Shown: positions 27,121 to 35,807 of the stretch, piece by piece
Position numbering within the stretch: the first letter of the stretch is position 1
Layout: the number at the start of each line of letters is the position of its first letter
Sequence record: MT968995.1
From: Escherichia phage vB_EcoM_WL-3
Strand: one strand, 5' to 3'
DNA: 64,000 nucleotides
Made by a program: the position numbers and the translations under genes
Notes under the pieces: model-generated
Databases searched by the model: none
What the model was told of the DNA's origin: nothing
Seen by the model: only the letters and a program-made list of their open reading frames with translations

Positions 27121-27298
27121 CTAAACGAATAGGTTCATGAATGCCATATCCCTGAACAGAAATTTCTGTCGTAGGATAAATTCCACTAATATCACCCATA
27201 TTCCACGCTTCATTAAATTGCTGTTCGCCTGAATTACTAAACCATTCTGCGAAAGCATTTAGCACATCTTCAGAACCTTCAATAATTATCTTTGCCAT
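27077..27298 (-). CDS. Hypothetical small acidic protein
   Basis: ORF track 73 aa. Confidence 0.5.
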   Translation of the reverse strand: MAKIIIEGSEDVLNAFAEWFSNSGEQQFNEAWNMGDISGIYPTTEISVQGYGIHEPIRLVEYDLCTGEEVKYD

Positions 27299-27672
27299 TA
27301 CAAACTCTCAGTAAAGGTACGAGCGATAACGTCGCGCTGCTGTTCCGGAGTCAGAGAGTTAAAGCGAACTGCATAACCGGATACACGGATGGTCAGCTGC
27401 GGATATTTTTCCGGATGCTTAACTGCATCTTCCAGAGTTTCACGACGCAGAACGTTAACGTTCAGGTGTTGACCACCTTCAATTTTAACTGTAGGTTGTG
27501 TTTCAATTTCAATTTCACGGGCATGCAAACCATAGAAAATTTCTGGGTCTACAAAAGAGTCCTCTTTAAAAGTTTTAGAAACAATAATTCGTGCTTGAAT
27601 ACCATCTTCAAAATAAATAGTACCTTTATGTGTGCCTTCAAGAATTTGATATGCTTTCATATAACCTCTCAA
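27298..27672 (-). CDS. Autonomous glycyl radical cofactor (GrcA/YfiD-like)
   Basis: C-terminal [59 protein letters not shown] is near-identical to the glycyl-radical domain of E. coli GrcA as recalled. Confidence 0.85.
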
Positions 27673-28049
27673 TTAGAAAATAAATTTATCCAAGATTGCT
27701 CTTTAATTAAAAATGGCTCAGAATCATATGCCATTAAACTTTGGGTAATTAGTCCTTTAAAAGGCCCATCAATAAATTCCATGGTAAAATATGGAATTTT
27801 ATTCATTAATCTTGCATTAGGAGCAGTGCACAAAACTCTGCATCCTCTGAATACGCCTTTTTGTAATTTGTATTGCTTAGGATAAAATTCGCTCAAGGCG
27901 TTGTTATTTGCCAAAATTTCAAAATGATTCACCAATTTATTTTTAATAGTTTTTGGCGAAAAATAAAGATATTCGAAAAGTTGCGTATCTGTCATCATTG
28001 CATTCCAATTACGAAAAACTGTGGACGAGTAATACCACCAATGCAACAT
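27669..28049 (-). CDS. Hypothetical protein
   Basis: ORF track 126 aa. Confidence 0.5.
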
Positions 28050-28534
28050 TTACTATTGCAACAGTGTTGCACAGTTTCAATATGAATATCGTAAATTTTA
28101 TCCATATCAGGAGATTTAACAGGCTCATCGATTATATACAAAATTCGAGAAAGCGATAAACCTCTGAACTTGCTACCTCTATTACCAACAAAACTACGGA
28201 CAGAATCAGTAAATAAGCGGAATCGAATATCATCATTAGAATAACGTGAAAATTCCTTTTTAATGTTATTTGCAGAAATTTTAGCGTAAGCTGAAGTATT
28301 AGAAAGAACAATAACTGTTCCGCCATCATACAACCAATTAGCAGCAAAGTTAGTCACAGCAATTGATTTACCAGATTGACGTCCACCGTCTAGTCGAAGT
28401 GTGCAATACTGTTTAAGCAAGTCTTCAAATGGCAGGATATATTCGTTTTTACAAATTTCTTCTACTCTAGCATCAGAATGGTGTGTAAAAGCATTCATCA
28501 GGGATAGATAAGGACCAGTTAAAAATGTTATCAT
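27995..28534 (-). CDS. Hypothetical P-loop NTPase
   Basis: Walker A GGRQSGKS, Walker B-like LYIIDEP; start ambiguous (28534, 28564 or 28582). Confidence 0.5.
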   Translation of the reverse strand: MITFLTGPYLSLMNAFTHHSDARVEEICKNEYILPFEDLLKQYCTLRLDGGRQSGKSIAVTNFAANWLYDGGTVIVLSNTSAYAKISANNIKKEFSRYSNDDIRFRLFTDSVRSFVGNRGSKFRGLSLSRILYIIDEPVKSPDMDKIYDIHIETVQHCCNSKCCIGGITRPQFFVIGMQ

Positions 28535-28679
28535 TTTATTCTCTCTAAATTTGGGCCATTCCATGGCGCATGAATTGTCCATTTCTGTATTTACCCATTA
28601 CCGCACTTGGGCTCGACCTTATTACAGGTTGGTGGGAATCCCTCACAGAATCATGAGGTCCAGGTTATTCCCATGTTAT

Positions 28680-29096
28680 TTAAATGTAAATATTTTTGCC
28701 GTAATACTTATACCAGTGTGGCTTCATTAAAATTTTTTCATCGAGTCGTTGTTGACTCAACTTAATAGCTGATTTGCATGGATTATAATCATTTTTCCAT
28801 TCTACTGGAATATCGCTGATGTCAGGAACTTCAGTATCTTTTATACTGAACCCGCGTTTTAAGCATTCCGTTATAATGTCCGATTGACGCTTTCGCAAAA
28901 ATTCTAACTTATCGTAAAAGAAAGTAACATGACCAGAACCTAAAATAAATTTAGAAGATATTTTAAAATCTTTAACGCGCTTACCGTTTGCCACATGCTT
29001 ACGAACTATACCAAAAACACGCGGCAATTCACGGTATTCTGCGATTAAATGTTGATCAGCAAGTTCAGATACTAAAGTCAAATTAATACGAGTCAT
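28680..29096 (-). CDS. denV: Endonuclease V (pyrimidine-dimer DNA glycosylase)
   Basis: 138 aa; [17 protein letters not shown]...[10 protein letters not shown] matches recalled T4 DenV with substitutions. Confidence 0.9.
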
Positions 29097-29155: not shown

Positions 29156-29686
<531 letters not shown>

Positions 29687-34502: not shown

Positions 34503-34521
34503 ATTTTCCTCACTTATAATT

Positions 34522-34597
34522 GGTCGAGGCAGTAGGGATCGAACCTACGACCTAGGACTTAGAAGGTCCTTGCTCTTCCTTCTGAGCTATGCCTCGG
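34522..34597 (-). tRNA. tRNA-Arg (anticodon UCU)
   Basis: Hand-folded cloverleaf; anticodon stem-loop GGACC-UUCUAAG-UCC; TTCGATC T-loop; encoded CCA. Confidence 0.8.
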
Positions 34598-34601
34598 ATT
34601 T

Positions 34602-34676
34602 GGCGGACATGATAGGATTCGAACCTATAACCAATCGCTTAACAGGCGATCGCTCTGCCATTGAGCTACACATCCA
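34602..34676 (-). tRNA. tRNA-Asn (anticodon GUU)
   Basis: Hand-folded; anticodon arm ATCGC-CTGTTAA-GCGAT; TTCGAAT T-loop; encoded CCA. Confidence 0.7.
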
Positions 34677-34680
34677 AATT

Positions 34681-34767
34681 GGTGGGGAGTGATGGAGTCG
34701 AACCACCCGAGTCGCAATGACAATGGATTTACAGTCCACACCGCTACCTCTACGGGATAACTCCCCT
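34681..34767 (-). tRNA. tRNA-Tyr (anticodon GUA), long variable arm
   Basis: Anticodon loop CTGTAAA identical to E. coli tRNA-Tyr; TTCGACT T-loop; encoded CCA. Confidence 0.7.
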
Positions 34768-34779
34768 AATTCTTAATTT

Positions 34780-34854
34780 GGTGGCCCTGGGTGGAATTGA
34801 ACCACCATCTGGCGATTATGAGTCGCTTGCTTGAACCTTCCAGCTACAGGGCCA
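34780..34854 (-). tRNA. tRNA with anticodon CAU (Met or lysidine-type Ile)
   Basis: Acceptor GGCCCTG/CAGGGCC; anticodon loop CTCATAA; TTCAATT T-loop; encoded CCA. Confidence 0.65.
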
Positions 34855-34861
34855 AATTTTC

Positions 34862-35347
34862 TTATTTTATGTAATATTTATTTAAAAACTTTCTAGCTTG
34901 AGTATGGCTAACATTTATAGCATTTGCATAATTTTTAATAAAACCTCGTTCATCCATATTAAAACTTTCTAATATTTTTAATCGTCTAGCTATCTCATCT
35001 TGACTTAAAGTACTTGCATTATTTTTAGAAATTTTTTCTAAGGACTGTACTGAGTGTTTTCGACCATTAAAATTAAAATTTTTAGATTTTGGAGGAAATC
35101 TATCATTTAGTCTCGCATCTTTTGTATTTTGATTATTAGTTGCGCAATATATGTTATTTAATGAGTATGGTCCTTTATCACCAAAACGGCACATACAGTA
35201 TTCATGACCCTTTCTTCCACGCTTATCATAATTTCCCGTTGATTTCCACCAATGCAACCACTCATCAAAAGTTAAATTCCATTCAATGTTTCTACGTATA
35301 GCAGAATTCCGCTGAGAAATATATTTTGCATAATCTTCTTTCATCAC
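34862..35347 (-). CDS. Cys/His-rich ORF in the tRNA gap; candidate mobile nuclease-like gene
   Basis: 161 aa; A/T-rich; motif NLTFDEWLHWW...GHEYCMCRFGDKGPYSLNNIYC; occupies the slot where T4 carries segB. Confidence 0.55.
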   Translation of the reverse strand: MMKEDYAKYISQRNSAIRRNIEWNLTFDEWLHWWKSTGNYDKRGRKGHEYCMCRFGDKGPYSLNNIYCATNNQNTKDARLNDRFPPKSKNFNFNGRKHSVQSLEKISKNNASTLSQDEIARRLKILESFNMDERGFIKNYANAINVSHTQARKFLNKYYIK

Positions 35348-35391
35348 AAATTTCTCTACTTATTACATACACTAAGCTAAATCAGCAAAAC

Positions 35392-35481
35392 TGGCGGAGG
35401 CGATAGGATTTGAACCTATGAGTCGCCGGAGCGACTGCCGGTTTTCAAGACCGGTGCATTAAACCACTCTGCCACGCCTCC
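35392..35481 (-). tRNA. tRNA-Ser (anticodon UGA), long variable arm
   Basis: Anticodon arm CCGGT-CTTGAAA-ACCGG; TTCAAAT T-loop; encoded CCA. Confidence 0.8.
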
Positions 35482-35483
35482 AG

Positions 35484-35557
35484 TCTCCATACAAGGATTT
35501 GAACCTTGGACCTCCTGATCCCAAATCAGGCGCTCTACCAAACTGAGCTACACGGAG
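35484..35557 (-). tRNA. tRNA-Pro (anticodon UGG), 3' CCA not encoded
   Basis: Anticodon arm CCTGA-TTTGGGA-TCAGG; 2 nt from tRNA-Ser (dimeric precursor as in T4). Confidence 0.75.
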
Positions 35558-35567
35558 TAAATTAAAT

Positions 35568-35641
<74 letters not shown>

Positions 35642-35646
35642 AAATT

Positions 35647-35733
35647 TGGTGCGAGAAGTGGGACTCGAACCCACAAGGAAATCATTCCGCAGCATTTTAA
35701 GTGCTGTGCCTTTACCAATTTGGCCATTCTCGC
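35647..35733 (-). tRNA. tRNA-Leu (anticodon UAA), long variable arm
   Basis: Anticodon arm CAGCA-CTTAAAA-TGCTG; TTCGAGT T-loop; encoded CCA. Confidence 0.8.
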
Positions 35734-35734
35734 G

Positions 35735-35807
35735 CTGGGAATAAAGGACTCGAACCTTTGCATCCTGGAATCAAAATCCAGTGCCTTACCAACTTGGCTA
35801 ATTCCCA
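35735..35807 (-). tRNA. tRNA-Gln (anticodon UUG), 3' CCA not encoded
   Basis: Acceptor TGGGAAT/ATTCCCA; anticodon loop TTTTGAT; 1 nt from tRNA-Leu (Gln-Leu dimer as in T4). Confidence 0.75.

Follow-up and report, generated by a model that had tools for sequence, protein, structure and literature searches.

What does a phage keep in a gap between two genes when the gap offers no convincing reading frame of its own? The question is raised by a non-coding gap of 145 nt at 28535-28679 of a 64,000-nt stretch of Escherichia phage vB_EcoM_WL-3 (sequence record MT968995.1), which is referred to below as the window. The window is that of a Tequatrovirus, and 401 nt match phages YUEEL01, ES21 and others at 99.8%. 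The gap lies between denV (28680-29096, minus strand) and a vs.8 homologue of 179 aa (coding sequence, CDS, 27995-28534, minus strand), which is placed both by the list of open reading frames (ORFs) and by the RefSeq record of the 99.8%-identical YUEEL01. An earlier note, made from the letters alone, had described the gap as a GC-rich, structured, non-coding segment upstream of denV. The bounds that it gave are exact, with the denV stop at 28680 and the vs.8 ATG at 28534-28532. The words "upstream of denV" apply in plus-strand coordinates only: the genes of the locus are all on the minus strand, so that, in functional terms, the gap flanks denV on its 3' side and forms the leader of vs.8 at the 5' end.

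The gap contains a conserved RNA structure of three helices that is strand-specific, and it is very likely that a small, structured and conserved RNA is encoded there. Judged by composition, folding and signals alone, the gap is unremarkable; its importance comes from comparative conservation.

A conserved three-way-junction core

The conserved part of the gap is a core of 48 nt (28589-28636, minus strand). Covariance model R1 matches it at 70.3 bits (E = 6e-21), and this is the single match to the model in the 64-kb window, tRNA cluster included. All parts of the core are read on the minus strand. The 5' strand of the first helix, P1 (ACCA, 28630-28633), abuts the second helix directly and pairs with the 3' strand of P1, U(G)GGU (28593-28597), in which a purine is bulged after the first base pair. 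P2 is a hairpin, ACCU[GUAAUA]AGGU (28616-28629), with a near-invariant stem and a loop of the form G/A-U-N-N-N-A. It is followed by the junction strand J2/3, which is CGA here (28613-28615) and C-R-A, or in a few cases CA, in the relatives of alignment A1. Then come P3, a mini-hairpin GC[CCAAGU]GC (28603-28612) with a variable loop of 5-6 nt, and the junction strand J3/1, GGUAA (28598-28602), whose columns in A1 (35-39) are either invariant or conserved to at least 90%.

The variants found among the copies define these parts more closely. P1 is 4-5 bp long, and the register of its bulge is set by copies without G runs, namely CACU/A(G)GUG, CUGGU/A(G)CCAG, CUGGA/U(G)CCAG, CCAU/A(G)UGG and ACCU/A(A)GGU. 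Double changes in P2 are rare and compensatory (GCCU/AGGC in locus L126 and ACCA[GUAA]UGGU in L377:159-204), and its loop also occurs as GUGAAA, GUAGCA, GUAACA and AUAAUA and once as a GNRA tetraloop. In divergent copies, P3 is GCC/GGC, GUC/GAC or GCG/UGC.

The structure was drawn by hand and then tested by pair counts. Besides the database records described below, further copies were collected by pattern scans of IMG/VR and metagenomes, which brought the total to 96 matches and 70 distinct sequences, all copies being confirmed by model R1. In the 70 distinct sequences, pairing is kept in 94.8% of cells. The score for covariation is 0.384 as against 0.107 for shuffled alignments, none of 500 of which reach the observed value; when partners are slid by 1-3 columns, the score is at most 0.064. 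The first (inner) pair of P1 is AU in 38 sequences, UA in 15, UG in 9, CG in 6 and GC in 1; the second is CG in 53, UA in 7, GC in 5, AU in 2 and GU in 1; and the third is CG in 46, GC in 16 and AU in 5. The second pair of P3 is CG in 58 sequences and UA in 11, and in P2 99.6% of cells are paired. The alignment of the 70 sequences was fitted to the model and is biased towards it, but a MAFFT alignment of 50 unique sequences agrees, with a score of 0.297 against 0.093 for shuffles (0/500) and with the three inner P1 pairs each occurring as several types. RNAalifold, run on a short alignment, gave P2 only, because P1 is bulged and P3 is too short.

The same pairs tell which strand folds. The U-G found at the first P1 pair in nine sequences would be an A-C mismatch on the plus strand, so the folded molecule is an RNA of the gene-sense strand. 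The suggestion of a structured RNA in the earlier note is strongly supported by the covariation of three helices in the 70 sequences; what the note had singled out was a hairpin beside the core that is called P0 here.

The core reaches far beyond the close relatives of the phage. A blastn search with a 156-nt segment as the query matches 1,032 phage records. In the T4-like groups that were compared (T4, RB69, Jiaodavirus, Gelderlandvirus, Dhakavirus and Mosigvirus), vs.8 follows directly downstream of the match and the gene on the other side of the match varies, and in distant T4-like genera the alignment is restricted to the middle of the segment. About 45 nt recur at 91-97% identity in Vequintavirus ('ime', A147) and in PsgM04F, which otherwise share nothing with T4; there, the core sits in unannotated DNA beside or inside tRNA clusters. 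Copies are also found in a 360-kb phage contig and in saline-water, TARA ocean and human-gut contigs. The nucleotide search proposed earlier as a check on conservation has therefore found a core that is widely kept and that extends to phages unrelated to T4. Compared with Jiaodavirus or Dhakavirus, this phage has 93% identity in the core, whereas the vs.8 CDS has 59-70% nucleotide and 40-65% protein identity (59% and 40%, respectively, for Jiaodavirus); by this comparison, the core is under stronger selection than the neighbouring proteins.

A host origin of the element was considered and rejected: none of 5,426 E. coli genomes has a blastn match to the element at E ≤ 10. A looser pattern, GGTCGAGC-N5-7-GCGGTAA, was discarded too, as it gives chance matches in G+C-rich bacteria, with flanking-helix counts that are chance-like. 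One of the records named above, 'Campylobacter phage A147' (MG065644.1, L007), is flagged UNVERIFIED and is classed as Vequintavirus; it is nearly identical at the locus to rV5-like phages of E. coli, and its host label is doubtful.

Base composition and repeats, on which the earlier note had relied, give less. The G+C content of the gap, put at about half by hand count, is 43.4% when measured, and that of the window is 35.1%. This is a modest enrichment, with 5.3% of windows 145 nt long having a G+C content at least equal to that of the gap, and 50% is reached by the 48-nt core alone. The inverted repeats are present as described, the outer one (TGGGAAT/ATTCCCA, 28633-28639 / 28667-28673) being reported by a repeat tool and the inner one (CCTCA, 28641-28645 / TGAGG, 28654-28658) being read off the sequence. 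By itself, the P0 hairpin that they form would not stand out beyond chance, and the case for the segment is comparative.

Genomic context and accessory modules

Outside the T4-like phages, the element is found in the company of tRNA genes. tRNA genes are present at 31 of the non-T4-like loci, and at each of these the element shares their strand, is separated from the closest one by 31-1,176 nt and often stands between two of them; everywhere it is co-oriented with the flanking genes. In a Vequintavirus-type contig (L359), a near-consensus TTGACA-17-TATACT promoter stands directly upstream of the element and a second promoter directly downstream. At L108, the element follows tRNA-Met and tRNA-Pro, with an intrinsic terminator 19 nt past the core, and in PsgM04F-type arrays long helices enclose the element unit. 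By tblastn, no vs.8 or vs.7 homologue was found near the non-T4-like copies, so the core is independent of vs.8.

These arrays have several further features. The element and the neighbouring units each lie within inverted repeats of ~20 bp at L006 (~1440-1610), L042, L293, L310 and L388, and the inverted repeats of the PsgM04F type, GUGUUCUUAUCGUUGUGA... / ...UCACAACACAACAUUAAGAGCAC, look like rRNA-type processing stems. Odd tRNAs are called by ARAGORN beside the element, with four-base anticodons (atcc, gtac, ctgg) or as an amber-reading 'tRNA-Pyl' (cta); they are located at L351 2501-2599, L383 3782-3880, L357 4505-4594, L391 3587-3669 and L042 9535-9610. Phage 'ime' has, in the same array, a gene with the annotation tRNA-OTHER.

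All T4-like copies are leaders and lie 60-130 nt upstream of a start codon. No promoter-like site was found in 28535-28679 on either strand, and no terminator there. Comparison of 39 distinct T4-like leaders gives one order from 5' to 3', namely core, S1, S2, weak Shine-Dalgarno and start codon. S1 (28568-28592, minus strand) is a variable stem-loop with an AUGGAC-type loop motif that is found in T4-like phages only; its closing stem changes from ACAU/AUGU to CACGU/ACGUG in L298 and L126. S2 (GCCA[UGGAA]UGGC, 28555-28567, minus strand) is a hairpin just 5' of the ribosome-binding site. It is kept as GCCA[NGGAA]UGGC in 39/39 leaders and shows no covariation among them, being conserved as sequence only. 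The linker, the weak Shine-Dalgarno (AGAGAG) and the vs.8 ATG follow at 28532-28554 (minus strand), as placed by the ORF list, RefSeq YUEEL01 and the PHROG profile. On the minus strand, 28555-28592 thus carry two GGA motifs in or near loops (AUGGAC of S1, and S2) in a pattern that is conserved in the 39 leaders. Leaders bound by CsrA/RsmA have at least two GGA motifs in hairpin loops near the ribosome-binding site, and the layout of S1 and S2 resembles that of such sites, which would here be putative.

At the 5' side of the core, the modules change from one lineage to another. P0, GGGAAU-AACCUGGA-[CCUCA-UGAUUCUG-UGAGG]-G-AUUCCC (28634-28672, minus strand), is the nested inverted repeat and is referred to as the 'type A' module; it is accessory and confined to T4-type relatives. 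The hairpin pointed out in the earlier note does exist, then, but it is the least conserved part, and the conserved core adjoins it. The P0 stem covaries in phage VR5 (GGGAGC/GACUCCC), and its inner loop is shorter in L012 and L375. In RB69 and in Klebsiella/Jiaodavirus and Dhaka-type phages, P0 is replaced by an unrelated 'type B' 5' module, and Salmonella phages, too, have a different module at this place. Mosigvirus EP32B has no 5' module and no S1, the latter being therefore dispensable; the core and the S2 hairpin remain. Some hairpin stands directly 5' of P1 in every lineage.

The type B module, CCUCAUGAACGUCGAGUCCUCUGAGUGAAGUA, lies ~50 nt 5' of the core in L003, L019, L021 and L023. 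By eye, it looks like a tandem copy of the core in degenerate form (AAGGUCGAGCCC..AGUGCGGUAA), and pairing would be possible between its GUCC(U) and the loop (A)GGAC in S1. Duplication is seen in other forms as well. Jiaodavirus K65PH164 carries a second full cassette upstream of an internal-virion-protein gene (L022 1781-1828, 1259-1306), and three T4-like phages of ~171-177 kb have tandem cores ~65 nt apart (L126 5092-5137, 5203-5250; L298 9021-9068, 9135-9180; L387 363-410, 477-522). In these tandem pairs the second core is divergent, with CA as J2/3 and a P3 of 3 bp.

The non-T4 lineages have extra features of their own, seen by eye: a P0 loop AAGCGG, a 5' motif GAAAGCAAA and a 3' CCGAGGU(U)AGUAG. 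These features would indicate a compact tertiary fold. The 5' motif and a 3' motif, CCGAGGUUAGUAG, are common to the PsgM04F-type arrays and the 360-kb contig (L335). A marine and saline clade (L340, L343, L362, L363, L364, L377) has extra elements ~40 nt to either side of the core, where a CAUG-GNAA-CAUG hairpin lies inside a stem UGCGU/ACGCA (UGCAA/UUGCA in others); by eye, loop and 3' tail in this clade form an apparent covarying pseudoknot (GGGUA/UACCC, GGGGG/CUCCC, GGGAG/CUCUC).

Around the gap of the window, the e lysozyme gene (29156-29650, minus strand) lies beyond denV, and vs.7 and then vs.6 (a GrcA homologue) follow past vs.8 on the same strand. For vs.8 itself, Pfam and PHROGs return only weak P-loop or terminase-like similarity. 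The vs.6 gene (27298-27672, minus strand) looks chimeric: its 3' 185 nt have 98.4% DNA identity to the chromosomal grcA of each of the 5,426 complete E. coli genomes, and G+C rises locally there to a peak of 0.51; its 5' half has no grcA match. The 3' segment looks like a very recent acquisition from the host. ARAGORN places nine tRNA genes at 34521-35807 on the minus strand, in two sub-clusters, and zero within the gap; the 538-nt spacer that splits the sub-clusters (34854-35391) has no match to model R1 or Rfam.

Possible roles of the element

We tentatively favour the reading that the element is a stable RNA module that binds a partner and that has been reused by T4-like phages as an mRNA leader. 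The minus strand, which is the sense of denV, vs.8 and the tRNAs, would be transcribed into a compact folded RNA. Its heart would be a junction of ~40 nt, with a P1 of free sequence, an invariant P2 with a GNRA-like loop and a P3 of 2-3 bp, and this junction would act as the recognition module for one conserved partner, which may be a protein or an RNA, from the host or from the phage, or a small ligand. In most carrier phages, the module would accumulate as a discrete and stable small RNA, cut from tRNA-array precursors by tRNA-processing enzymes or else made from a promoter of its own. In T4-like phages, it would be set in the mRNA leader of vs.8, and sometimes of an internal-protein gene, ahead of two GGA-displaying hairpins, from where it might be released by mRNA processing; it may also affect the stability or translation of the downstream gene. 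An invariant P2 stem and invariant junction strands beside a freely covarying P1 suggest a recognition surface, and the positions in tRNA arrays, behind a dedicated promoter and before a terminator are suggestive of a stable RNA that depends on no ORF.

Several points weigh against this reading. The 39 T4-like leaders, without exception, directly precede an ORF and carry conserved hairpins, which fits a cis-acting leader equally, and the tandem cores of L126, L298 and L387 form an arrangement that is also found in some riboswitches. The linkage to tRNAs could merely reflect a convenient site for expressing a stable RNA. Mimicry of rRNA was not found in the E. coli rrnB operon, on which model R1 with filters off scored 5.4 bits at best (E = 4.8). 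Folding of the lone sequence, named in the earlier note as a way to check its proposal, gives no signal beyond shuffles: the minimum free energy of the gap on the minus strand is -33.8 kcal/mol, and that of shuffled sequences is -33.7 +/- 4.0 (z = -0.03). The plus strand, too, has a stability like that of shuffled sequence (z = -0.65).

Phage RNAs that accompany tRNA genes are a kind already known. GOLLD and ROOL are large, ornate RNAs of phages and prophages, ~600-800 nt long, which come mainly from Firmicutes prophages and environmental sequence. Their tRNA-array context is noted in PMC12286853. The element is like them in being phage-borne, in lying beside tRNAs in the same orientation and in having an elaborate conserved structure; it is unlike them in size, as a core of ~48 nt in RNAs of ~100-170 nt (the gap being 145 nt), and in having no Rfam match. 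In T4, RNAC and RNAD (species 1 and 2) are freed by tRNA-processing enzymes. They are small RNAs whose function is reported as still unknown (PMC9697503). The element shares with them the status of a small phage-encoded RNA linked to tRNA genes, but RNAC and RNAD lie within the T4 tRNA cluster, whereas the element of T4-type phages lies ~6 kb downstream, in an mRNA leader; and the RNAC probe sequence printed in PMC9697503, compared by eye, bears no resemblance to it. The element shares neither sequence nor architecture with GOLLD, ROOL, RNAC or RNAD.

Two further comparisons are of interest. PeSL cassettes, reportedly described by Arbiol et al. in 2010, consist of an early promoter and a stem-loop in T4-type phages. 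Like them, the element is a conserved intergenic cassette in T4-type hyperplastic regions with variable flanking genes; unlike them, it has no promoter in this gap, reaches far beyond T4-type phages and shows covariation of the RNA type. PMC10690425 reports 10,006 unnamed 'csRNAs' predicted from IMG/VR, among them 8,495 DNA-virus candidates. The data source and the type of evidence, covariation in viral contigs, are the same as ours. Its main text discusses few motifs, none of which corresponds to the element; the catalogue as a whole may include this motif.

Searches for known families were negative for the element. Rfam 15 gave no match overlapping 28535-28679 even at E ≤ 10, and a gathering-score scan of the whole window gave nine tRNAs and nothing else; on seven other loci, no match overlapped the element at E ≤ 1. 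The significant Rfam matches in the window and the seven loci were tRNAs and group I introns only. Group I introns (RF00028; 90.9 and 54 bits) were seen in environmental contigs that bear the element, at L341 4112-4333 and L108 12784-13079. Literature searches by sequence, by vs.8, by T4 small RNAs and by tRNA-array RNAs returned nothing specific to the element, and a paper on RegB that names denV concerns the denV Shine-Dalgarno, not the gap.

A number of other likenesses were tried and dropped. The element is not a tRNA or tRNA-like structure: ARAGORN and the Rfam tRNA model are silent, and its three helices have no T- or D-arm signature. Compared by eye, there was no support for P2 as an anticodon-loop mimic (GUA/GUG), or for a likeness to the GUAAUA loop of the 23S GTPase centre, to the 16S 530 loop (GCGGUAAU), to J11/12 of RNase P (GGGUGAAAG) or to the tag region of tmRNA. 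A bulged-G fold of the sarcin-ricin type for GGUAA/CGA is one nucleotide off in register.

Of the alternatives, a cis-acting leader survives best and is possible, if somewhat unlikely: the element would be a riboswitch-like aptamer, or an operator bound by a protein or a tRNA, that tunes the downstream gene through S1, S2 and the weak ribosome-binding site. Every T4-like copy has its start codon at the distance given above, with S2 in between, and both the duplication of the whole Jiaodavirus cassette before an internal-protein gene and the tandem cores of the three phages suit such a role. The build is that of a small aptamer, with a three-way junction, conserved strands and a GNRA-like loop. 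Riboswitch aptamers such as c-di-GMP-I/GEMM-I and purine likewise have a three-way junction, a covarying P1, a conserved junction and a GNRA-type loop, and the conserved structured aptamer that characterizes riboswitches is found in the element. Unlike riboswitches, however, the element matches no riboswitch family in Rfam, has no consistent regulated gene and no clear expression platform across lineages, and in many of its copies lies between tRNAs. Outside T4-like phages it is followed by no consistent ORF and lies instead in tRNA arrays or at pre-terminator sites, and the copy before the terminator has no overlapping alternative pairing. The genes downstream in T4-like phages (vs.8, internal proteins) have no common function. 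The 3' strand of P1, UGGGU, could instead pair with a downstream GCCCA, as the mutually exclusive pairing of an expression platform would require; by eye, phages of the T4 type keep this pairing and those of the Klebsiella type keep it as GGGGU/GCCCC, but the alternative fails in the types of SEA1 (L020), L124 and IME08 (L021).

An RNA-processing element is distinctly unlikely. It would be a new self-cleaving ribozyme or a site for a structure-specific nuclease, at which early polycistronic and tRNA-array transcripts are cut so that denV is parted from vs.8 and tRNAs are helped free. The position between cistrons and between tRNAs on the same strand would suit it, as would the core, which, as is usual for small ribozymes, is a small and highly conserved junction whose helices are free in sequence; hammerhead and HDV-like (hepatitis delta virus-like) ribozymes do occur next to phage tRNAs. 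The core strands of the hammerhead are CUGANGA, GAAA and UH, but the junction strands of the element are none, C(G)A and GGUAA, and no Rfam hammerhead match was found. HDV-like ribozymes, including 'theta', have a nested double pseudoknot with a P1 strand of 6-7 nt between the P3 and P4 hairpins; the element has no such double pseudoknot and only the 2-3 nt of C(G)A between its two hairpins, again with no Rfam match. No Rfam ribozyme model matches at E ≤ 10, and no cleavage site can be identified in the sequence.

It is very improbable that the element is a junction at the DNA level, serving homologous recombination or homing that shuffles the cassettes of hyperplastic regions, with the structure incidental. 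In its favour, the upstream gene varies (denV, ipIV-like, other internal proteins, small ORFs) and the element and vs.8 keep their place, which also lends indirect support to an idea of the earlier note, the remnant of a mobile-element target; and cassettes are duplicated in Jiaodavirus. Compensatory changes keep three helices paired, however, and include G-U pairs that work only on the transcribed strand, so that the strand-specific covariation points to RNA; conservation of the core extends to phages whose flanking DNA has nothing in common with that of T4, and a gap without a promoter does not fit PeSL-type cassettes.

The possibility of coding leads to the annotation of T4. The view that the gap holds no convincing ORF is upheld: on the minus strand there is only a 33-aa ORF with a GTG start (28545-28646) and a 16-codon 5' extension of vs.8, and both of these frames are broken by 1-nt indels among relatives; P3 varies by such indels, and S1 by large ones. 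In the T4 record AF158101, the vs.8 CDS is annotated at 64253-64912 (L002 1947-2606) as 220 aa; its ATG lies inside the P0 hairpin, and the whole RNA element is thereby annotated as protein. In the window, which comes from a relative with 93-97% identity, the corresponding frame has a GTG start, meets a TAG at 28545-28547 and is not in register with the ATG of vs.8. The vs.8 form given by RefSeq has 179 aa, and it is this form alone that a PHROG profile of 177 positions covers, the alignment beginning at its residue 3. The T4 vs.8 start has probably been annotated ~40 codons too far upstream, which masks the element. An N-terminal extension of Vs.8, as in the T4 GenBank record, is scarcely credible, since the open frame that runs in T4 from the ATG within P0 into vs.8 is closed by the TAG in the window and broken by indels in relatives, RefSeq and PHROG cover the 179-aa form only, and the substitutions follow base-pair covariation, not a codon-like pattern.

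Significance for large virulent phages

A bolder view is that the junction is the active centre of a new class of functional RNA expressed beside tRNAs by large virulent phages; this is unlikely, though of high interest if true. Such an RNA could be a small ribozyme for self-cleavage or processing, or else a free-standing aptamer or decoy by which a conserved host factor or an immune signal is sequestered; the T4 element lies ~1.5 kb from vs.4, which we take to be the anti-CBASS sponge Acb2. If this view were true, T4 would have carried the RNA unnoticed because its record annotates the region as coding.

The favoured reading of a stable, partner-binding module has consequences that are nearer to hand. 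To our knowledge, RNAC and RNAD are the only recognised small RNAs of T4, and the element is a third small-RNA candidate beside them. Selection of such strength, with hardly a nucleotide exempt, is usually a sign of a catalytic core, of a pocket for a ligand or of a site at which a conserved cellular machine docks. As the element is short, the phages that carry it are tractable (T4, RB69, rV5-like) and the junction nucleotides can be mutated, it is directly testable. Its companionship with tRNA arrays bears on why large virulent phages keep tRNA clusters and on what else these arrays express.

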